Part shown: one piece after another, positions 867 through 61,839 of the stretch
Position numbering within the stretch: position 1 is the first letter of the stretch
How the letters are laid out: every line of letters starts with the position of its first letter
Source: Dictyostelium discoideum
Lineage: Eukaryota
NCBI GenBank assembly: GCA_000004695.1
Contig: CM000153.2
Location: 2,752,001 to 2,816,000, forward strand
Direction of reading: 5' to 3'
DNA length: 64,000 nucleotides
The notes under the pieces: generated by a model
Seen by the model: only the letters and a program-made list of their open reading frames with translations
Told to the model about the DNA's origin: nothing
Databases searched by the model: none
Translations under genes and position numbers: made by a program

Positions 867-3644
867 ATGATAAAAGTATTTAAAGATTTAAAATTTTTAA
901 TTTTAATAACCATAATATTATTAAATTTAAAAAGTATAAATTGTAAAATTATTTATGGAGATTCAGTATCATTTGAAAGAGTATTATCACCACAACTTGG
1001 TAAGAATATTACGTTGCCATGGGGTAAAGATAAGGTAATTCATTTGTGTAATCCACATGGAGAAGAATCTATACCAGTTTTAGTTTCAAACAATATACCA
1101 TTGGGTAAACTTGCTTCAAATGATGAAAATTTCTTGGCAATTTTTGGAAACCAATCATTTGCTAGATTGTTGGCTCATTTTAATTGTAAGAAAACAGAGG
1201 AAACTTGTATTAGATTACGTACTGATTTGCCAGTATTTACAAGTTGTCTTTTAATTGGTTCAGTTGATGGGTTTGATCATGTTACTTTCAATTCATCGTT
1301 GAGTGGTGTACCAACCAATATGAATTCATGGAATGTGGATACCGTTGGTAAATTTTCAAATAATCTTACAAGTGCTGGTAGAATTATAGTAAAGAATGAT
1401 AATAATCAAATTTCATTGGGTTGCTTTGAAGAAGGTGATAAAAACAATTTGAACTATATTTTAATGCATCCAAATAATCCAATTGATACCATTGATATAT
1501 GTTATAAATCATTTAATGAAGAATCAGAGTATGTTTTATATGGCCTAGTGGAATGTGGTGATACTTCAAAATCTTCATTCTCTATTAGTGGCTATGTTTT
1601 CTTTGATAAATATTATAGTAGTTCGCGAATTAATAATCCACCTGTTGCTGGTCAAATTGTATATATTCAACAAAAAAATGGTGTGGTTTATGATTTAGAT
1701 GGTAAACGTGTAAATCAAACAATTACAGATGCAAGAGGTTTCTATTATTTTAATAATATTCCAGGTGGTGATTATCAAGTTTACATTACACCAAGTGATC
1801 CAGATACACTATATAGTCCTGATGTTGATTCAAATTTACAAGATCCATATACAAACAAAGCAACCAATGGTTCAATTGAAACCTATATCTATATCAATGG
1901 AAGTGGTGTTGTACCAGTTAGTAAAACCAATTTCGATGATATTAAATTAACATCGGTTTATGTTATTCGTGAAATGAATATTGGTATCTTACCAAAGAAT
2001 ATTTCAATGGAAGGTTTGGTTTTCATTGATTATAATGCCAATGGTCAAATGGATACTGCCGTTACCAATACCTCTGCTCAAGATAAACCATACTCTGGTG
2101 TAAGAGTACAATTACTAGATGAAAATAGAGTTGTAAGAGATGTTATCACTGGTGATGATGGTATTTTCAGTTTTCCAGATGTTCCATATGTCTCAACTGG
2201 ATATATTGCAGTGATTTACACACCAAGTGGTAATGTAATGACAAATTATCCATTCCCACCATCACCATTGGCTGGTGAAATTATAAACTTGGAGATTGTA
2301 CCAAATAATATATTATTGGTCGGTTTAATTAATAATGAAAACTATTGTCAAGATTCACCATTGATGGCAATTATTTGTTATGCAAATCAAGGTTATAATG
2401 AATCACATGCTGATGATCCAGTTTTAATTACATTCCCATCCAATGCAAATAAACATCTCTATAATATGCCACATGGTACAGTTCAACATATTGCCACACA
2501 TAAAGAAATTGGTTCAGTTTATGGTGTTGGTGTTGATAGAGTGAATGGTGATATTTATACAAGTGCATTTATGAAATACTATTCTGGATTTGGACCAAGT
2601 GGAACAGGTGCAATTTATAAATCTACAACTAAAAACAATGATTATCAAACTTCATTATATTTTGATTTGAATAAAGCAATGAATCAAGAGGATTATTGTG
2701 GTACAGACTCACATATTTATCCAATGGATAATTATGATGGAGGTGTTGAAAAGGTTGGAAAGATTGCATTTGGTGATTTAGATATTCACAATGGTTCACT
2801 CTATACCATTGCATTGGCAACCAAAGAGTTGTTAAGAGTTTCAATTTCAGATCCAAGAGATTTCCAACTTTATAATATCTATAATCCATGTATTGAAGAA
2901 CCAGATGATTGGCGTCCATTTGCATTGGGATTACGTCATGGTAATATAATTATTGGTGGTGTTTGTTCTAAAGAATCTGATTCAACCAATATACCAGTTG
3001 GTTATATTATGGAAATGAGTGGTAATATTTTATTAACTGTTCCAATGGATTTCCCAAGAGGTTGTAAATCATTTGGTGGTTCATTCTGTATTCCAGGTGA
3101 ATATTCAGCTTGGTCAAGTGTTTATTTCGAATCACAACCTTGGATTTCAGATTTAACAATGGATGGTGAAGATATGATAATTTCAATTCGTGATCGTGGT
3201 GGTGATTTAGATCGTGATGTTGGTACCTATGATATGTTAAGAGCTTGCTTTGATGGTGATCAATTAATACTTGAGAATAGTGGAATTTGTGGAGGTGTTC
3301 CTGGTGCTCATCTATTACCTTCTGGTTATTTCGGTACACCTGACGGTATCAATAGTGGTGAATATTACAATGATAATTTCTATTATCCAACTGATAATGA
3401 TGGTCATGATAATGTAGCTTCGACTTCTGGTGTTGTAATTCCAGGTTATCATACTCTCTTTGGTTCTTCATTAGATATCGATAGTGTTGGACAAGGTACT
3501 GTTAAAGTTTGGGATAATAAAAATGGTCTATTACTATATGGTATTGGTGTTTATCTTCAAAGTAATGAAAATCCAACAAATAATTTTGGTAAAGCAAATG
3601 GTTTAGGTGATATGGAACCAATTTGTTATAATTATATTAAATAA
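867..3644 (+). CDS. Secreted protein (925 aa) with an N-terminal signal peptide and two SdrD-B/Cna-B-type beta-sandwich repeats (colossin-like); C-terminal ~550 aa of unknown function
   Basis: Single long ORF from the track. The N-terminus MIKVFKDLKFLILITIILLNLKSINC is a hydrophobic signal-peptide-like start. Two segments match the SdrD B-like / Cna B pattern G.V..D.N.NG..D..E.G..GV.V.L...G....T.TD..G.Y.F: YVFFDKYYSS..AGQIVYIQQKNGVVYDLDGKRVNQTITDARGFYYFNNIPGGDYQVYITPSD and EGLVFIDYNANGQMD..SGVRVQLLDENRVVRDVITGDDGIFSFPDVPYVSTGYIAVIYTPSG. There are many N-glycosylation sequons. Codon usage is typical of a genuine Dictyostelium gene. Confidence 0.65.
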   Translation: MIKVFKDLKFLILITIILLNLKSINCKIIYGDSVSFERVLSPQLGKNITLPWGKDKVIHLCNPHGEESIPVLVSNNIPLGKLASNDENFLAIFGNQSFARLLAHFNCKKTEETCIRLRTDLPVFTSCLLIGSVDGFDHVTFNSSLSGVPTNMNSWNVDTVGKFSNNLTSAGRIIVKNDNNQISLGCFEEGDKNNLNYILMHPNNPIDTIDICYKSFNEESEYVLYGLVECGDTSKSSFSISGYVFFDKYYSSSRINNPPVAGQIVYIQQKNGVVYDLDGKRVNQTITDARGFYYFNNIPGGDYQVYITPSDPDTLYSPDVDSNLQDPYTNKATNGSIETYIYINGSGVVPVSKTNFDDIKLTSVYVIREMNIGILPKNISMEGLVFIDYNANGQMDTAVTNTSAQDKPYSGVRVQLLDENRVVRDVITGDDGIFSFPDVPYVSTGYIAVIYTPSGNVMTNYPFPPSPLAGEIINLEIVPNNILLVGLINNENYCQDSPLMAIICYANQGYNESHADDPVLITFPSNANKHLYNMPHGTVQHIATHKEIGSVYGVGVDRVNGDIYTSAFMKYYSGFGPSGTGAIYKSTTKNNDYQTSLYFDLNKAMNQEDYCGTDSHIYPMDNYDGGVEKVGKIAFGDLDIHNGSLYTIALATKELLRVSISDPRDFQLYNIYNPCIEEPDDWRPFALGLRHGNIIIGGVCSKESDSTNIPVGYIMEMSGNILLTVPMDFPRGCKSFGGSFCIPGEYSAWSSVYFESQPWISDLTMDGEDMIISIRDRGGDLDRDVGTYDMLRACFDGDQLILENSGICGGVPGAHLLPSGYFGTPDGINSGEYYNDNFYYPTDNDGHDNVASTSGVVIPGYHTLFGSSLDIDSVGQGTVKVWDNKNGLLLYGIGVYLQSNENPTNNFGKANGLGDMEPICYNYIK

Positions 3645-6635: not shown

Positions 6636-9135
<2,500 letters not shown>

Positions 9136-10876: not shown

Positions 10877-12154
10877 TTATTTTCTTTTAAAAGTTGATGA
10901 AGATTTTTTAGAAGTTTTTGCAGAAGGTTTTGAAGGAGTTTTTGTAACTTTCTTTTTTTTATCATTTGGATCTTCTGGTTTTTTAATTACAGTTATAAAA
11001 GAGTCCATACGAGATTGAACACTTGTATTTTTAAATTTCTTTAATTTTTCAATACCTTGAGCGACTCTAACATCAGAGAAACCCATTTCTTCAACTAAAA
11101 ATTTATTTAAACCTTCAACATCTGGATCTTTCCATTGAAAAGGTGGTAATTGATCAGCTGGAATAACATTTGGATTTTTAAATAATTCTCTCACCTCTGG
11201 GTATGGGAAAAACTCTGGTAATGGGTATTTGGATTTATCTAAATGTTTGATTACCTCCTCCAATGATTTATGTTTTTGAATTAACTCAATTGCTCTCTTT
11301 GGACCAATACCTTTGATACTATCACAATAATCACAACCTAAAAGAATGGAAAGATCAATAAACTCATCTTGAGTTAACCCTAAACCCTCCAATACTGATT
11401 GTAATTCAAATTCTAGAATTGGCATTTTCTTTGCTTCTGAAAAGAAAAGACGTCTAAGTAGTACTGTTGAACCTAATGTCAAAGAATCCATATCCTCTGA
11501 CCCGGTTGCCCATGCTTTACCCTTCTTTACAATCTCTGCACATTGCGCTTCTGCCTCACATGGTGCCTTTACAATTGGTACACCCATTAATGTTAAAAGT
11601 TTTATACAATCTTCATTTTGTTTACGTGTAACTGTAATAACACGTTTTGCAAATTTCTGAACCTCTTCATTGGTACCAACCTCTGTTGCTTCCTTTAAAT
11701 TCTCTTTTGCTTCTTTTCTTCTTGCTTGTCTTTTTGCTAATTCACCACTCTTTAATACTGGTGCACTACCATCAAATACATAAATTGGTTTAATACCTCT
11801 TGAAATTAATTTAATTGTACGATAAAACATACCTTGTAAATGACTAAATAAAAAAAAAAATAAAAAAATAAAAAATTTTAATATTTTATTATTTTATTAT
11901 TTTATTAATTATTAATTATTAATTATTAATTATTAATTATTATTTATTTTTATTTTATTTTTTTACCTTGTAGTTTCACCAAGTTGATTTGTTAATGCCG
12001 AAGAAACATCAGCATTCATTGCAATAAGAAATTGATATAAACTTGTTGATGCATCAATTGCAATAATTCTACCAAAATAGTTTTTTAATATATTTGTTTT
12101 AATTGAAGTTGGTGCATTATCTTCAATTAAATCTGTTAATTTTTTAATTCCCAT
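10877..12154 (-). CDS. repG: Flap endonuclease 1 (FEN1), 2 exons: complement(join(10877..11843,11967..12154))
   Basis: Exon 1: [62 protein letters not shown]. After the splice: [40 protein letters not shown]...[20 protein letters not shown].... This is collinear with eukaryotic FEN1 (MGI.GL..LI.D.AP.....Y.GR..AIDASMS.YQFL, the XPG-N/XPG-I domains, and a basic C-terminal tail). The donor is AG|GTAAAA and the acceptor is TTTAG. The gene symbol repG (Dictyostelium FEN1) is given from memory and not verified. Confidence 0.9.
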
Positions 12155-25266: not shown

Positions 25267-26139
25267 ATGTTTAAATTAATAAATTGTTTATTTGATTTTT
25301 ATGAACCCGTTTCAAATGATGGATTTAAACTAATGTTATTTCAATTTGAAAATAATTTAAATTATAAAATCGAATTTATTAAACAAGTTTGCCAATTGGT
25401 TAAAAATAATTCAAATTATTTAAATTTTATATTTAATCAAGTTTTATTGTATGATGATTTAGAGTTAATAGAATTAGGATATAACCAATTAGATAAGCCA
25501 ATGTTAAAAATTGAATTTATAAATCAAGATAATTATAGAGAAAGTACTAATAGTAATAAAAAAGAATGTGAAGCTGAATTTTATTTTATTAGGTCAGAAG
25601 GAGTGTTGGAATTTATTTTTAAAAATTATTTAAAAAATTGTAATAAAATATTACCAATTACCAATTTCATTTATAATGGCAGATTAGATTTAGTTGAAAA
25701 GTATAAATCATTATTATTATCATCATCATCATCACAAGAAATATCATATATTGAACCATCATTTAAATTAGATCCACCAATTTGTTATTCTCATAGACTT
25801 TATTCAATTACTATTGCAATGGAAGCAATGATTGGTTTTATAAATTCACCATCACTTTCAAATGGTTGTGGTGATAGTGATGATGGCGTAATTTTTAAAA
25901 ATGAACATTTCTTTGGTTTAAATAATTTAAAATTAATTTCTGATTTTATTTATTTAATTAATCATAAATTTACAAATCAAAAAGGACCATTCTATTTTAG
26001 TTTTTATGGTCACCCAAGACTAAAATTTTATATTAAAATTTTAATTGCAAGATGGATATATTTTAATAAACCAAATCATTTTGAAAGATTTGGATTTAAT
26101 ATTTTAGATTTATTAATTAAAAAAAATAAAATTTTATAA
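25267..26139 (+). CDS. Truncated paralog (290 aa) of the lineage-specific family protein, corresponding to the central region of the 1093-aa protein
   Basis: MFKLINCLFDFYEP...NQVLLYDDLELIELGYNQLDKPMLKIEFINQDN...FYFIRSEGVLEFIFKNYLKNCNKILPITNFIYNGRLDLVEKYKSLLLS... is collinear with ..FFGQVLLYDDLELIELAYNQLNKPMLKIEHMNE...FHFIRSEKVLEFVFNNCLKNNSKVLPITAFIYNCRLDLVEKYKSLLLS.. in the downstream gene. Whether it is expressed is uncertain, since the upstream homology is frame-shifted. Confidence 0.5.
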   Translation: MFKLINCLFDFYEPVSNDGFKLMLFQFENNLNYKIEFIKQVCQLVKNNSNYLNFIFNQVLLYDDLELIELGYNQLDKPMLKIEFINQDNYRESTNSNKKECEAEFYFIRSEGVLEFIFKNYLKNCNKILPITNFIYNGRLDLVEKYKSLLLSSSSSQEISYIEPSFKLDPPICYSHRLYSITIAMEAMIGFINSPSLSNGCGDSDDGVIFKNEHFFGLNNLKLISDFIYLINHKFTNQKGPFYFSFYGHPRLKFYIKILIARWIYFNKPNHFERFGFNILDLLIKKNKIL

Positions 26140-26335: not shown

Positions 26336-26690
26336 ATGGGTATTTCTAAGAGAGAAAAAGAATTATTAAATGTTACAGAAAAATTAAAAAAAGAAAATCA
26401 AGAATTAAAATCAAAACTTTCAACAAGAGAAAAATTAAATAAAAAAAACAATAATAATAAAGAGATTATCATAGAAGAAGAGGTTGAAAATGAAAATGAA
26501 AACGAAAATGGTAGTCAAAATATGGATTGTGGTTTAGAAAAAGAAAAAGATATAGATACAATAATGAAAGAATTAGAAACTAAAAAATATAAAACAATAG
26601 CAAAAATCGCAAAAACAAAGTATGGTGTTCAACAATTGGGTGGTAAAAAATTAGATATTTTAGAAAGAATTAGAGAATCTATTAAATTGA

Positions 26691-26743
<53 letters not shown>

Positions 26744-27650
26744 GAGAAGAATCAACAACAACAACAACAACAACAAAAACAACAACTAATACCAATGAGT
26801 GGTGGTGAAAGATTATTTTGGAAAATTTTTAGAAATAAATATTTAAATAGACAAATTATAAATAAATTATGTACAGGAAAACATTCATTAAGATATGATG
26901 AAGTTTTTAATGTTAGTCGCATGATTGAATGTAATGAAATTGAATTGTTAAAAGACAAAGTTTATAGAAATCAATATTTAACAGGTTTTGAAAAATCATT
27001 ATCAGATTTATTTTCAGCAATTAAAGATGATAAAAAATTCTATATAAGCTTTTTTAAATTTTATCCAAAGATATCATTATTCAGTATTGATTATACTGTT
27101 GGAAATATTTTAAAATCTGATTGTATTGGTGCATTAAAATCATTAGTTGAAGAAAATAATTATAAACCAACTACCGATAATTTTATTCAATCAATTAAAG
27201 ATGGTAGTTATAAAACATTTAAATATATGATGAATCTTTTTGAAAATTCAAATAATAATGAAAATAATAATAATAATAATAAAAATAATAGTAATAATAA
27301 CAATAAAAATAGTATAGAGAAATTTAAATTACCATTCACAGAAAATGAATTTTGGAAATCAATATTTGGATACTGTTTTATAAAACGTGCTAAATTCATT
27401 AACTTTATGATTAACAGATACCATATAAAACCAGCAGCTGTGACACCACTTAGATTTAAAAAAATTTCAAAGTTTTGTCCAATCCAAGAATCATTACTTA
27501 TTAAAGATTTAATAAATATATGTGAATCTATGATTCATTTAAAAGTAAAACCAAAAGGTTTTTATCAAAATATTATTTTTAAAAAATTAAAAAAGAAAGG
27601 TGATAGTAAAAGTAAAAGTAAAAATGATAGTAGTAGTGATAGTGATAGCG

Positions 27651-27699
<49 letters not shown>

Positions 27700-27710
27700 A
27701 AGCGAAAGCG

Positions 27711-27771
<61 letters not shown>

Positions 27772-29617
27772 AAATGAAAAAGAAAAAAAAGAAAAAAAAG
27801 AAAAAAAAGATAATGATAGTAGCAGTGGTAATAGTGATAGTGAAAGTGATAGTAGTGAAAGCGAAAGAGAAAAAGAATTTAAAGAAACAATTGAATCAAT
27901 AACTAAAATTGAAAGAAATCAAAAGATATTTGATTTTGTTTATTATCAATATAATAGTGATAATAAAAATAAATTAAAATCAATTTTAAAATTATTAGGA
28001 TTGTTTTATGGCCATAGTTTTTTTGAAGGAAATGAATTTTATTCATTGTTAGCAGGTGAAAAAGTAAATATATCACGTAAAACAAAACATTCAGATTTAT
28101 TATTGCATTCATTTAGATTTGGTGATATAGAATTGTTTAAAGAAGTTTCAAGATCAACTATTTGTTCAACTATTCGAAATGTAATTTTTGAAGATAAATC
28201 ATTTGTTGGAAATATACCAATTCTCTTTCAATTTCAAAATAAAAAAGAAAATCAAATTCAATTCATTAAAGACATTTGCAAATATCTTAATATTGTAACA
28301 CTCCAAAAGATATATGGAGATAATCATATTTACATTTTCTTTGGGCAAGTTTTATTATATGATGATTTAGAATTGATAGAATTAGCATATAATCAATTAA
28401 ATAAACCAATGTTAAAAATTGAACATATGAATGAAATAGGAATCACTGAAATTTCAACCAATTTTGGTGGTAATCCAAGTTTTCATACTGAATTTCATTT
28501 TATTAGATCAGAAAAAGTATTGGAATTTGTTTTTAATAATTGTTTAAAAAATAATAGTAAAGTATTGCCAATTACAGCATTTATTTATAATTGTAGATTG
28601 GATTTAGTTGAAAAGTATAAATCATTATTATTATCAGTACCAGCAGCACCACCATCGCCATTGCTTAAAAGAGATATAGTTTTCAAAGTACCACTTCCAC
28701 CAATATTAAATACTTGCCAATTCAATTCAATGGGTTTAGTATTGAAAACATTTATAGATTTCCTTCAATCACCTCTATCAAAAGGTTGTGGTGATAGTAA
28801 AGGTGTTGTTTACAAAAGTTCTCATATAGTTAGCTATAAAGGCGTCAATTCAGTATTGGATTTTACCTATCTTTACTCTATAACTCTAGATAGAAATTCT
28901 GGCAATGGTATACCCTTTCTACCAGGCAGAGGCAGTCTAAATTATTATTTTGTAGTTGCAGTTCAAAGATGGTTATTCTACAACAGAAATGTTTTACCAA
29001 ATAGTTATAATTTCACACTATTCTCTGAAAAATATTGTTATTTTGGTATTGGTTATTCTCATGCTTCAAAAAAACCAAAAGAAATTTTCAATACTATTGA
29101 AGATACTGAATGTAAAGGTTTCATTAATGATTTTATTAAATTAGGTTTACCAAATTTTCATTCGGCTACAACTGAAACAACAACACCAACAACACCAACA
29201 ACAACACCAACAACAACAACACCAACAAAAAAAACAACCATAACTGGTAACAATCCAGATGTAATTTTAAATAATGGCGATAAAATTTGTTTTGCAAATT
29301 ATCTTAGAGGTTTATTGGAAAAAGAAGCAACAAAGGGTCATATTAGATTATTTAAAGCTTTGGTTGATAATGGTTATAAATCAATATTTTCAAAAAGATC
29401 AAATGATTCAAAAAGTATTTTCGATCAAATTCAATTACACGAAATACTCTATCGTGCTTTAAGAAATAACCATTTACAATTATCTCTTTATCTTTTAGAG
29501 GATTGTAATATTTCAATCACTAATACCCAATTTTATTCAAATGTTTCTAAAAGATTTGAATATTCTGCAACTTTTTATGCTTTAAAAGATTTATTTAAAA
29601 ATAATGAAATAATTTAA
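26336..29617 (+). CDS. Large lineage-specific hypothetical protein (1093 aa) with an N-terminal coiled-coil-like region, poly-T/poly-Q, and a (SE)n acidic repeat block; full-length member of the local tandem family
   Basis: Single uninterrupted ORF with Dictyostelium-typical codon usage. The internal GAAAGT/GAAAGC hexamer repeat (27650-27780) encodes about 38 SE dipeptides. Paralogous segments lie upstream (24930-26139) and downstream (29750-30450). Confidence 0.7.
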
Positions 29618-36257: not shown

Positions 36258-36465
36258 TTATAAACAAACAAATAATAATTGAATTTTTTTAAATTTGAAA
36301 TTAAAATATCTTCTTAAGATTTTTTTTTTTTTTTTTTTTCTTTGATTTTTTTTTGATTTGAAAGTCAATCTGTTTTTTTTTTCATTTTATTTTTTTTATT
36401 TTTTTTATTTTTTTTATTTTTTTTATTTTAAAAATAATAACACCAAACCCAATATATACATAAAA

Positions 36466-36686
36466 ATGGATAATTTAAAGGAAATAAATAATGATAAATT
36501 ATTTTTTAAAGTTTTTAGAAATATTTATTTAAAAATGGTTATATTTTATCATATTAAATTATTAAATTATTATGAAATTAAAGATAATTATACATTTACA
36601 ATAGAACAATTTCAATCATTTAAATTTAAAGATCATTTATTAAAGTTAAGATTAATAGAACCAATACAAAAATTAGCAGCAGCAGC

Positions 36687-36724
<38 letters not shown>

Positions 36725-38220
36725 ATAATTATTATACAAAAGGTGAACTTTCAAAATTAATACCAAATTCAGTTAAAAGTTTATCAATAGATATTAATAA
36801 TCAATTAGTAGTTGGTGATATAAAAGATGGTTTAACAAGTTTAAAATTTGGTAAAAGATTTGATCAAATATTAACACCAGGATTATTAGTAACGGATGGT
36901 TCATCATTGGTTGAGTTTAATTCAGGTAGTGCATTTAGGAATGGTGATTTAGATTTACAAGTTGGGTCAATACCTTCATCTATTAAATCATTAACATTAG
37001 GTCACAGTTTTAATTCAGTTATTAATGAAAATGTTTTACCAGAAGGATTGGTAAAATTAAGATTTAAAGGATTTAATAAAATGATTGTAAGGAATTCTTT
37101 ACCAAATTCATTATTGGAATTGGAATTTGGTAGAAATTTCAATAGAGCTATAAGTGCGCATGGAACATTACCAAAATCATTGACATCGCTAACGTTGGGT
37201 ATCCACTTTACCCATGTTATCCATATTGGTACTTTACCACCAACACTAAAGAAACTAATTATTCAATCGGTTGGATATAATCAAAAATTTGAAAAAAAGG
37301 CATTACCAGATTCATTGGAGCATTTGGAGTTCAATAAAAATGGGTTCTTTAATCAACCAATTGCTGATAAATTTTTACCACCAAATTTGAAGACTTTGAT
37401 TCTTCCAAAACAATGGTCAAATAATTATGAACCAATTCTAGCACTCCAATTACCAATCAATTTAACTGATTTACAATTTTACTCGAATGAATGTTCTTTA
37501 TTTTTACAAAATGATTCAATACCATCAACAGTTTTAAATTTGAGGATTAATGGTATACTTGGTAATCATTATAGTTTTACAAGGGGTGCTAAAAGGTTAC
37601 AAGGAAATATTATACCTCCATCTATTACCTCTATTGAAACTGGTACGGTTATTAATCTTTCACATTGTATAAATTTAAAGAATTTCAAATTTGATGAAAG
37701 TTTTGATCAGAGGTCTCTATCAAAAGGTTATATACCATCAACTATAACAAATTTAAAACTTCCACCATTATGGAATAGAGAATTGGTATGTGCTAATGGT
37801 TTTGATTTATTTCCAAATTGTTTAAAATTTTTAGATTTAGCATCTTATAATTATCCAATTGGTGAAAATGTTTTACCACCAAATTTAGAATCATTAATAA
37901 TTAATAGTTGGAATTTACCAATTGAAAAAAATACATTACCTCAATCTATAACTTATTTATCAATGAAATCATTCAATCAAAGATTAACTCCATCATCTTT
38001 ACCAAAAAATTTAAAAACTTTAATTCTTCATAAATATAATGTATTATTAGTACCAAATTGTTTCCCACAATCAATTAGACTTATAAAACTTGGTTCAATC
38101 TTTGAAAGAAACAATATCCTATATCCATTCAATAATAATGTTACAATTATATTTGGTAAAAATGATATTAATTTTCCAATTTATCCAAAATTTGAAAATA
38201 AATTACGTTGTAGTGCATAA
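36466..38220 (+). CDS. FNIP-repeat-containing protein (Dictyostelium-expanded FNIP repeat family), about 584 aa
   Basis: Tandem ~22-aa repeats with the FN(I/L)P signature occur throughout: ..LKFGKRFDQILTPGLLVTDGSSLVEFNSGSAFRNGDLDLQVGSIPSSIKSLTLGHSFNSVINENVLPEGLVKLRFKGFNKMIVRNSLPNSLLELEFGRNFNRAISAHGTLPKSLTSLTLGIHFTHVIHIGTLPPTLKKLII... The likely start is the ATG at 36466 (MDNLKEINNDKLFFKV..). The track ORF start at 36358 lies in a poly-T/poly-F leader and is probably spurious. Confidence 0.8.
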
Positions 38221-38282: not shown

Positions 38283-39622
38283 TCATTTTAATGGTTCTGG
38301 ATTATTAAAATGTGTTTGAAATCTATTAATTAATAAATTATTTGATTTTAATATTCTTGATATAAATGAACCAAAATTTAAATTTGAATTAATTTGAGTT
38401 AAACCATCTTTTGGACCTAGTGATAGACTAATGATTGGTGGTAATAATTTATGTTTTGCAAGTTGGTTTTTATTTTTACCATTTGATAAATCTTTTATAA
38501 CTTTAGCTACTATATTCCCATGTGAAAGTGCATTGTATGTGGTTTTAAGTTCATCAAAATCTGTAATATCACCAATTGCAAATATATTATCGTATCCTTG
38601 AACTTGACAACTTTGATTAACTTTAATTTGACCAATTTCATTAATTTCATTTGAAAAATTAGTTTTATAAGATTCACTATTTAATTTAATACCAATTGTC
38701 CAAATTACAAAATCAGATTCAATTGATAACCCATTTTTAGTTTTATATGTTTTTAATGAAACTTGAAAATTTGGTGATGTTTGATTAATAAAACATTGTT
38801 TTATATCATCTGGAATTTCAATTCTATCATTTAATATAACTGAAACGTTTCTTTTTTTCATAGATTCATTAATTAAATTATTGAATTTATTATTTGTTTT
38901 GGATGATACTAATTTATTACCACTATGAACAATCGTAATTTTCTTTGCCAATTCTTTGTTTTTAATTGGATATTTATTAATAATTTCTCCAACAACTTCA
39001 CAACCTACTGAACCACCCCCAACTATTAATATACTTTTAGCTTGTTTAATTTGTTCTGATATGTCTTTATAGTAATTAAAAATTTCAGTACCTGATATTT
39101 TTTCTAATGGTGCTTTAAAAGGTGCCAATGAATTTGAACCAGTTGCAATTACTAAATAATCAAATGTTAATTCTTTACCATCTTCTAATTTTACAAGAGT
39201 TGGTGAAATTTCAATAACTGTACCATAAATAAATTTACCATTTTTCAATAGTTTATCATATGGTATATATATTTTTTTTGCCAATTCTGGTTCAACTATT
39301 GCTCTTATTGATGCAATACTATTAAAAAATGTTTGTTTTCTTTCAACAACAGTTACTTCAAAATTTGAATCTAATAATTTTGCAACTTGGCTACCTCCAA
39401 AACCACACCCAATTATTAAAACTCTTTTCTTTTCACAATCTCTTGTAATACTACTAAAATAATTAAAAATCTCTATTAATTTAATTAAAATAATATAAAA
39501 AAAAAAAAATTAATTATCTATTTTTTTTTTTTTTTTTTTTTTTTTTATTAATTAAAACAAATTAAATAATTTAAATATATTTTACTTTTTAAAGATTCTG
39601 AAATATTATAAAGGTAATTCAT
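38283..39622 (-). CDS. AIF/AMID (FSP1)-like FAD/NAD(P)-dependent oxidoreductase, paralog A, 2 exons: complement(join(38283..39472,39586..39622)), about 408 aa
   Basis: Exon 1 is ATGAATTACCTTTATAATATTTCAGAATCTTTAAAAA (MNYLYNISESLK), ending at donor A|GTAAAA in phase 1. Acceptor AATTAATAG joins exon 2: KIFNYFSSITRDCEKKRVLIIGCGFGGSQVAKLLDSNFEVTVVERKQTFFNSIASIRAIVEPELAKKIYIPYDKLLKNGKFIYGTVIEISPTLVKLEDGKELTFDYLVIATGS...ILIVGGGSVGCEVVGEI...FAIGDITD.... This contains two GxGxxG Rossmann motifs and is roughly 65% identical to the downstream paralog 42340..43503. The track ORF begins at an internal TTG. An in-frame upstream stop at 39510-39512 forces the intron model. Confidence 0.7.
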
Positions 39623-42339: not shown

Positions 42340-43503
42340 TTATTGGATTAAAGGTTTTGGATTATTTAATTGAGAAATATAACGATCAATAAATAATGAT
42401 TTTGATTTTATCATTTTTGTAGCAAAAGAACCAAGACACATAGTTGGACTGATTTGAGTTATACCATCTTGAGGACCTAATGAAAGACTAAGTATTGGAC
42501 CTGATACTTTATGTTTTGCAAGCTTATCATTACTTTTACCTTTAGATAAAGCATCGATTGCTTTTGCTGCAATTGCAGCATGATAGCCAGCATTATATGC
42601 TGTTTTAAATTCATCAAAATCTGTACAATCACCAATAGCAAATACATTATTGTATCCTTGAACTTGACAGCTTAAATTTACTTTTAATTGTCCAGACTCA
42701 TTGATTACATTTGAGAAATGTGATTGATATGATTCACTATTTGTTTTAATACCAACTGTCCAAATTATTAAATCTGCTTGAATTGGTACACCCTTTTCAG
42801 TTGTATAATTTTGTGATGATATTTGAATATTTGGTGAAGTTTGATTTAAAAGGTTAGCTTTAATTTCATCTGGCATTGTAATTCTATCATTTAATATGAC
42901 TTCAACATTTCTCTTTTTCATTGCTTTTGAAACGACATTTGTAAATTTATCATTCATTTTTGGATTCACTAATTTACTACCACTGTGAACAATTGTAATT
43001 TTCTTTACCAATTCTGAATCTTTAACTGGATATTTCTCTACGATTTCCGATACCAATTCACAAGCAACTGCACCACCACCAACTATTAATATACTTTTAG
43101 CTTGTTTAATTTGTTGTGAAAAGTTTTGGAAATAATTTAAAATCTCACTACTACTTTTCTTTTCTAATGGTGCTTTAAATGGTGCCAATGAATTTGAACC
43201 AGTTGCAATTACTAAATAATCAAATGTTAATTCTTGACCATCTTCTAATTTTGCAAGAGTTGGTGAAATTTCAATAACCGTGCCAAAAATAAATTTACCA
43301 TTTTTCAATAGCTTATCATATGGTATATAAATCTTTTTAACTAATTCTGGTTCAACAACAGCTCTAACAGATCCAACACTATGGAAAAATGTTTGTTTTC
43401 TTTCAACTACAGTTACATTAAATTTTGAATCTAATTGTTTTGCAACTTCACAACCACCATAACCACCACCAATTATTAATACTCTTTTCTTTTCTGATGT
43501 CAT
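42340..43503 (-). CDS. AIF/AMID (FSP1)-like FAD/NAD(P)-dependent oxidoreductase, paralog B, single exon, 387 aa
   Basis: MTSEKKRVLIIGGGYGGCEVAKQL... has an N-terminal GxGxxG motif. A second dinucleotide-binding motif (ILIVGGGAVACELVSEI) and the C-terminal FAIGDCTD motif are typical of the AIF/AIFM2/NDH-2 family. It is strongly similar to paralog A at 38283..39622, which lies in the same orientation. Confidence 0.85.
   Translation of the reverse strand: MTSEKKRVLIIGGGYGGCEVAKQLDSKFNVTVVERKQTFFHSVGSVRAVVEPELVKKIYIPYDKLLKNGKFIFGTVIEISPTLAKLEDGQELTFDYLVIATGSNSLAPFKAPLEKKSSSEILNYFQNFSQQIKQAKSILIVGGGAVACELVSEIVEKYPVKDSELVKKITIVHSGSKLVNPKMNDKFTNVVSKAMKKRNVEVILNDRITMPDEIKANLLNQTSPNIQISSQNYTTEKGVPIQADLIIWTVGIKTNSESYQSHFSNVINESGQLKVNLSCQVQGYNNVFAIGDCTDFDEFKTAYNAGYHAAIAAKAIDALSKGKSNDKLAKHKVSGPILSLSLGPQDGITQISPTMCLGSFATKMIKSKSLFIDRYISQLNNPKPLIQ

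Positions 43504-56779: not shown

Positions 56780-61839
<5,060 letters not shown>

Follow-up and report, generated by a model that had tools for sequence, protein, structure and literature searches.

Colossin-D of Dictyostelium discoideum joins two SdrD-B-type domains to a predicted six-bladed β-propeller module found also in giant colossins and bacterial SdrD B-like proteins

Colossin-D (ColD) of Dictyostelium discoideum AX4, encoded by colD in a stretch of 64,000 nucleotides (contig CM000153.2, positions 2,752,001 to 2,816,000; hereafter the window), is a short member of the dictyostelid colossin family. Its parts run in the order signal peptide (probable), lineage-specific Cys-containing N-domain, two SdrD-B-type domains (B1 and B2), and a C-terminal module predicted to be a six-bladed β-propeller. 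The same module follows a B domain in giant colossins and accompanies SdrD-B-type domains in a large number of bacterial proteins, so that B domain plus propeller can be regarded as a conserved unit. As a gene, colD is already catalogued and in that respect the finding is already known; what is described here concerns mainly the C-terminal module and its linkage to the B domains.

The C-terminal module is the most conserved part of ColD, with 54% of alignment columns invariant among six orthologues compared with 27–35% elsewhere. Residues 479–925 have no match in Pfam, NCBIfam, or, by sequence, the Protein Data Bank (PDB), and PDB sequence searches with whole ColD, the propeller profile, and the N-domain profile returned nothing significant. 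An earlier reading of the window made from the letters alone (the sequence-only reading) had described an uncharacterised C-terminal region of 550 aa; the absence of library annotation stands, but the length is 447 aa, and a second region without a domain call lies at aa 27–236. Structure prediction, which that reading had proposed as a check, was informative for one part of the protein only. A full-length AlphaFold2 model from the six orthologues was too poor for use (predicted local distance difference test score, pLDDT, 46), whereas a propeller model from a 51-row alignment (the ColD module, seven dictyostelid orthologues, and 43 other homologues) was confident (pLDDT 90.1; predicted template modelling score, pTM, 0.92).

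In the propeller model, the strands fit six four-stranded blades, with a strand at aa 913–919 predicted to pair with the first three strands and so close the ring. A Foldseek comparison with the PDB returned β-propellers exclusively, at query-normalised TM-scores of ~0.43 or less and identities of ~10%, and the best matches (nidogen, LRP6, LRP4, LDLR) are all extracellular binding propellers without catalytic activity. Long loop insertions, notably aa 803–853, are conserved. Cys pairs 494/504, 675/700, and 794/808 are kept even among bacteria, which fits an extracellular, disulphide-bonded domain. R777, E803, and W749 are invariant across the 51 propeller sequences, and conservation reaches at least 90% at K570, K632, R683, R731, D776, D789, E832, H847, K909, and D915.

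Two propeller blades start with Gly-Lys/Gly-Asp motifs (VGKIAFGDLDI, FGKANGLGDME) and a third with an Asp-rich stretch (QPWISDLTMDGED); in chain order, the three segments concerned are ColD aa 631–642, 757–769, and 907–917 (window ~2757–2792, ~3135–3173, and ~3585–3617). FG-GAP_3 matches occur in four bacterial propeller members and are weak (E ~0.06). The motifs and these matches hint at putative FG-GAP-type calcium-binding loops.

In a HMMER search with the propeller profile, 2,817 cluster representatives passed E ≤ 1e-3; of these, 2,101 also passed E ≤ 1e-10, and 302 passed E ≤ 1e-30. Most matches span profile positions ~7–442, and the C-terminal propeller is therefore a self-contained module. 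Among dictyostelids, it lies at the extreme C-terminus of colossin A of Cavenderia (7,796 aa; module at 7233–7672) and Heterostelium, and likewise of Tieghemostelium colossin B, a 3,513-aa Dictyostelium purpureum protein, and Polysphondylium violaceum proteins; the matches in the two colossin A proteins and colossin B score 144–247 bits (E ~1e-68 to 1e-38).

The bacterial propeller proteins, which are labelled just "SdrD B-like domain-containing protein", come from Lentzea, Streptomyces, Crossiella, Caldilineaceae, Chloroflexaceae, Zavarzinella, Blastocatellales, Saprospiraceae, Bacteroidota, Thiothrix, and others. In ten short bacterial members, the module, which in most of them occupies about residues 130–630, is followed by SdrD_B and sometimes by DUF11 or an IPTL-CTERM sorting signal, and in none of the ten is the propeller covered by Pfam or NCBIfam. 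SdrD_B is present in 50 of the 51 rows of the alignment, three rows have weak LPXTG anchor matches, and none of the 51 consistently matches a Pfam propeller family; type IX secretion system (T9SS) tails occur in a few bacterial members. At the multi-copy extreme, a protein of 4,919 aa from a Caldilineaceae metagenome-assembled genome (P0013) carries five to six propellers ~900 aa apart with B domains between them. Stand-alone bacterial propellers of 533–549 aa (P0209–P0211) have no Pfam domain, and the P0210 cluster holds 59 member sequences.

The SdrD-B repeats of ColD are beyond chance. On the whole protein, the Pfam family SdrD_B (PF17210) scores 35.2 bits (E 1.6e-8) over two stretches, above its curated cut-off of 29.7. 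Scanned separately, B1 (26.6 bits, E 7e-6) and B2 (20.7 bits, E 5e-4) are each significant, yet lie under the family cut-off, and the two domains are 21% identical to each other (E 0.056). Two further β-sandwich models, CarboxypepD_reg (34.0 bits, cut-off 32.3) and SpaA (23.7 bits, cut-off 23.1), pass narrowly on a single stretch, aa 274–314. Membership of Cna_B (PF05738) was rejected, as the family HMM gives no match and is not among the six Pfam families reaching E ≤ 1 on ColD; of the "SdrD-B / Cna-B" repeats named in the sequence-only reading, only the first half of the label survives. B1 weakly matches the structure of a Bacillus cereus "collagen adhesion protein" (3rkp/3kpt, E 0.089). Strands run throughout aa 237–478 in the full-length model, but with pLDDT values of just 26–78.

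The signature on which the sequence-only reading relied turned out to be a composite of the two domains: its first half (G.V..D.N.NG..D) is exact only in B2, where the motif GLVFIDYNANGQMD lies at aa 383, and its second half (TDA.G.Y.F..IP.G.Y.V) is exact only in B1, where TDARGFYYFNNIPGGDYQV lies at aa 287. The DxNxNGxxD loop is likewise present in B2 and not in B1, which has FFDKYYSSSRINN at that place. This loop is the calcium site of the Staphylococcus aureus SdrD B repeats, and B2 may be stabilised by calcium.

In six colossin A-type proteins, the segment that an HMM of B2 matches best lies immediately N-terminal to the propeller (E down to 1.7e-13). Among non-ColD homologues, the best B2 match adjoins the propeller on its N-terminal side in 52 of 143, compared with 7 of 102 for a B1 HMM. 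The bacterial consensus upstream of the module, GxVFxDYNANGxxD, matches ColD B2. It is this adjacency, together with the shared bacterial consensus, that identifies B domain plus propeller as a conserved unit.

The ancestry of the cassette was considered on a tree of 182 modules built by neighbour joining. The 19 modules known to be dictyostelid all fall within one clade of 24, whose other five modules have a dictyostelid-like amino-acid composition, several of them with signal-peptide-like N-termini. Within the clade, ColD, ColA-type, ColB-type, and short-paralogue sub-clades can be distinguished, and the sister group is bacterial. The tree fits one ancient acquisition: the whole B-domain-plus-propeller cassette would have been transferred from bacteria to the ancestor of Dictyostelia and would later have diversified into giant and short colossins. 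Colossin A has been proposed to be built from the bacterial Cna_B domain, and colA has been described as encoding a slug structural protein with "hundreds of repeats" of Cna_B and as a candidate for bacterial gene transfer (PMC3188802); going by the works cited in that article, the view that the colossin repeats are of bacterial ancestry dates back to the Dictyostelium genome papers. The colossin D family has been tabulated as well, with 5, 33, 22, and 7 genes in D. discoideum, Acytostelium subglobosum, Polysphondylium pallidum, and D. fasciculatum, respectively (PMC4334915).

The colD reading frame is one uninterrupted open reading frame (ORF) of 925 aa from ATG to TAA, with exactly the limits that the sequence-only reading had given it. 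The translation agrees letter for letter over its full length with EAL64955.1 / XP_639974.1 / UniProt Q54NU3 (UniRef100_Q54NU3), "Colossin-D", and colD is therefore intronless, real, and already named. The sequence-only reading had set the protein apart from the giant colossins, known as the main Dictyostelium carriers of such repeats, and this separation fails, the protein itself being a colossin. Equal-length orthologues are found in D. cf. discoideum (89% identity), D. citrinum (85%), D. firmibasis (82%), D. purpureum (66%), and P. violaceum (53%), and remoter ones in Synstelium and Heterostelium, the Heterostelium entry likewise being named colossin D. Base composition is ~10% GC between genes compared with ~30% GC within them, a poly-A run lies 5′ of the colD ATG, and the low GC content around colD is typical of Dictyostelium.

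In ColD, 16 of the 18 Cys residues are invariant among the six orthologues. The earlier description of the protein as heavily N-glycosylatable does not hold up: the 11 sequons of this Asn-rich protein are not above the 10.4 ± 2.9 obtained after shuffling. Three sequons are invariant among the six orthologues. Residues 1–30 are the sole stretch with a 19-residue Kyte–Doolittle mean above 1.6, and hydropathy reveals no transmembrane or GPI-type tail at the C-terminus, which is hydrophilic. With its single hydrophobic segment at the N-terminus and this hydrophilic C-terminus, ColD is probably secreted and not anchored, in agreement with the sequence-only reading. The N-domain (aa 27–236), with six invariant Cys residues, has no match in Pfam, NCBIfam, or PDB sequences. 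In 215 fetched proteins, its HMM matches dictyostelid ColD-type proteins only, and this 210-aa domain was found neither in the giant colossins nor in the bacterial proteins; its structure in the full-length model is unreliable (pLDDT 24–72).

Table 1. Location of colD and of the parts of its product in the window
Feature	Residues	Window position	Strand	Basis or remark
colD gene		867..3644	+	925-aa ORF plus stop codon; Colossin-D, D. discoideum AX4
Probable signal peptide, MIKVFKDLKFLILITIILLNLKSINC	1–26	867..944	+	Kyte–Doolittle hydrophobicity
N-terminal Cys-containing domain	27–236	945..1574	+	Found only in colossin D orthologues among 215 proteins
B1, first SdrD-B-like domain (predicted β-sandwich)	237–375 (Pfam core 274–314)	1575..1991	+	SdrD_B
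B2, second SdrD-B-like domain	376–478 (DYNANGQMD at 388–396)	1992..2300	+	SdrD_B
C-terminal module, predicted six-bladed β-propeller	479–925	2301..3641	+	No Pfam-A or NCBIfam model

Set beside the giant colossins A, B, and C, ColD has in common with them SdrD-B-type repeats, a C-terminal propeller placed after a B domain, and propellers that belong to one clade. The giant proteins, ~3,000–7,800 aa long among those retrieved, differ in their very long repeat array, whereas ColD has two B domains in 925 aa. Bacterial SdrD B-like proteins of Actinomycetota, Chloroflexota, Planctomycetota, Acidobacteriota, and Bacteroidota have the same propeller plus SdrD_B cassette, with 25–33% identity across the full module, and have the Cys pairs and charged residues in common with ColD. 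In the short bacterial proteins, however, the propeller usually lies near the N-terminus with the stalk after it, while in ColD it is C-terminal, no anchor is present, and the probable signal peptide is of the eukaryotic kind.

The S. aureus MSCRAMMs (SdrC, SdrD, SdrE, Cna) have B repeats of the β-sandwich type, as is predicted for those of ColD, and B2 retains their DxNxNGxxD loop. The head of an MSCRAMM is an IgG-like N2N3 pair, whereas the putative head of ColD is the propeller. ColD contains no A-region, Ser-Asp repeats, or LPXTG anchor, and the NCBIfam models MSCRAMM_SdrC and MSCRAMM_SdrD do not match it; for want of A-region, Ser-Asp repeats, and anchor, ColD is not an MSCRAMM, and the analogy drawn in the sequence-only reading applies to the B repeats and no further. 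The YWTD (LDL-receptor class B) propellers of nidogen, LRP4, LRP5/6, and LDLR have the six-bladed fold in common with the ColD module, but are only 9–13% identical to it; the ColD module has ~180 extra loop residues, including the conserved loop at aa 803–853, and no flanking EGF domain. Membership of the YWTD family was rejected, as neither ColD nor the 51 members match Ldl_recept_b (PF00058) and ColD has no YW[ST]D motif. Membership of the SGL / SMP-30 / PON-type propellers was also rejected, the family HMMs giving no match in the 51 members.

With regard to function, the short bacterial layout, in which a B-domain stalk comes after a propeller near the N-terminus and several proteins end in a sorting or anchor signal, suggests a surface adhesin with a binding head. 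Because of this order of head, stalk, and anchor, and because of its likeness to the non-catalytic YWTD, NHL, and Kelch propellers, the propeller is read as a ligand-binding head, for which the B domains would provide a rigid spacer. ColD has no anchor, and its two-domain stalk is flanked by a globular domain on either side, an arrangement that suits a soluble two-ended binder. The reading favoured here, in which moderate confidence can be placed, is that ColD would act as such a binder, or as a cross-linker, in the extracellular matrix, the slime sheath, or at the cell surface. The matrix, adhesion, or bacterial-recognition role put forward in the sequence-only reading is plausible.

Several considerations weigh against this picture of a transferred cassette with a binding head. 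The propeller tree was built by neighbour joining without bootstrap, and taxon labels are missing for most of the sequences in it. The statement that ColD is probably secreted derives from a hydrophobicity heuristic. The gene neighbourhoods of the stand-alone propeller P0210 and of P0178 contain housekeeping genes only and offer no operon partner or functional clue. In the literature searched, neither experiments nor expression data were found for colD, and no experimental work was found on the propeller, whether of amoebae or of bacteria. Finally, the charged residues with full or almost full conservation between bacteria and Dictyostelium would also suit an active site.

The last point leads to the foremost alternative, that the propeller is an enzyme, so that ColD would be a secreted catalyst in which the conserved residues form the active site and the B domains are mere spacers. 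In the six-bladed propellers of the SGL, PON, strictosidine-synthase, and Diels-Alderase types, the active site lies at the mouth of the central tunnel. Catalysis would account for the invariance of R777, E803, and W749 in all 51 sequences, for the conservation of nine charged residues or His (D776, H847, E832, K909, D915, K570, K632, R683, R731) in at least 90% of them, for the rank of the propeller as the most conserved part of ColD, and for the existence of stand-alone bacterial propellers (533–549 aa) that have no stalk. However, no member of the 51 matches the Pfam SGL, Str_synth, arylesterase, or phytase families even at E ≤ 1, the best structural matches are non-catalytic, and the presence of up to five to six copies per bacterial chain, set between B domains, is a typical trait of adhesins that enzymes seldom share; an enzymatic propeller is considered unlikely. 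A broader and still tentative proposal spans both possibilities: the propeller would carry a charged site that is conserved (R777, E803, H847, D776, E832, and a Lys or Arg before several inner strands) and that might bind or process one common ligand, e.g., a polysaccharide, in bacteria and social amoebae.

A second alternative, regarded as distinctly improbable, holds that ColD is a lectin-like receptor for bacterial prey or symbionts that reuses the head of a bacterial surface protein in feeding or defence. The derivation of the module from proteins displayed on bacterial surfaces would suit such a receptor, as would the expansion of the ColD-type family in group 2 dictyostelids (5, 33, 22, and 7 copies; PMC4334915), which is of a kind common in recognition families. 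On the other hand, the propeller is highly conserved among orthologues, which is the opposite of the diversification usual in recognition receptors, and colossin A is described as a protein with a structural role in the slug (PMC3188802). A match of the repeats through chance or low complexity, or a spurious ORF, can be dismissed almost entirely: although each repeat alone falls under the Pfam gathering score and B1 and B2 are only 21% identical, this reading is refuted by the combined SdrD_B score from the Pfam scan that the sequence-only reading had called for and the separate E-values (7e-6 and 5e-4), by same-length orthologues with 53–89% identity in at least five other dictyostelids, by the exact identity with a gene annotated as colD in RefSeq and UniProt, and by the B2 HMM, which in colossin A-type proteins finds the equivalent domain upstream of the propeller (E ~1e-13).

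Within the window, no colossin paralogue adjoins colD, and the neighbouring genes are ordinary and unrelated. The ORFs at 38283–39284 (−) and 42340–43503 (−), ~3 kb apart, match Pyr_redox_2 / Pyr_redox (E 4e-32 and 1e-39) and seem to be two pyridine nucleotide-disulphide oxidoreductase genes in tandem. The ORF at 36358–38220 (+) contains six FNIP repeats (E 7.5e-67), a family that is hugely expanded in dictyostelids (PMC4334915). In an ORF for an XPG/FEN-type nuclease at 10877–11830 (−), XPG_N is matched only from profile position 61, and in the ORF at 7879–9135 (+), VPS9 is matched only from profile position 22; as both matches start inside their profiles, each gene probably has a first exon beyond the ORF, and hence introns. 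The ORFs at 26336–29617 (+), 58822–61839 (+), and 25267–26139 (+), of 1,093, 1,005, and 290 aa, match no Pfam family at E ≤ 1e-3, and the two largest of these domain-less ORFs are as long as colD.

For the biology of the colossins, these results assign a fold, predicted from the model, to the part of ColD and the giant colossins that is largest and best conserved, and place it in a family of bacterial surface proteins that numbers thousands and has no Pfam or NCBIfam model. The fold and the linkage of the propeller to SdrD-B-type domains are a useful annotation and an experimental handle, and will not surprise specialists. They refine the account of gene transfer, with "a head-plus-stalk cassette" in place of "a repeat", and extend to the propeller what has been proposed for the Cna_B repeats of colA. 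On the tentative proposal of one common ligand in bacteria and amoebae, social amoebae would have taken over a complete bacterial head-and-stalk surface device and built the colossins around it.

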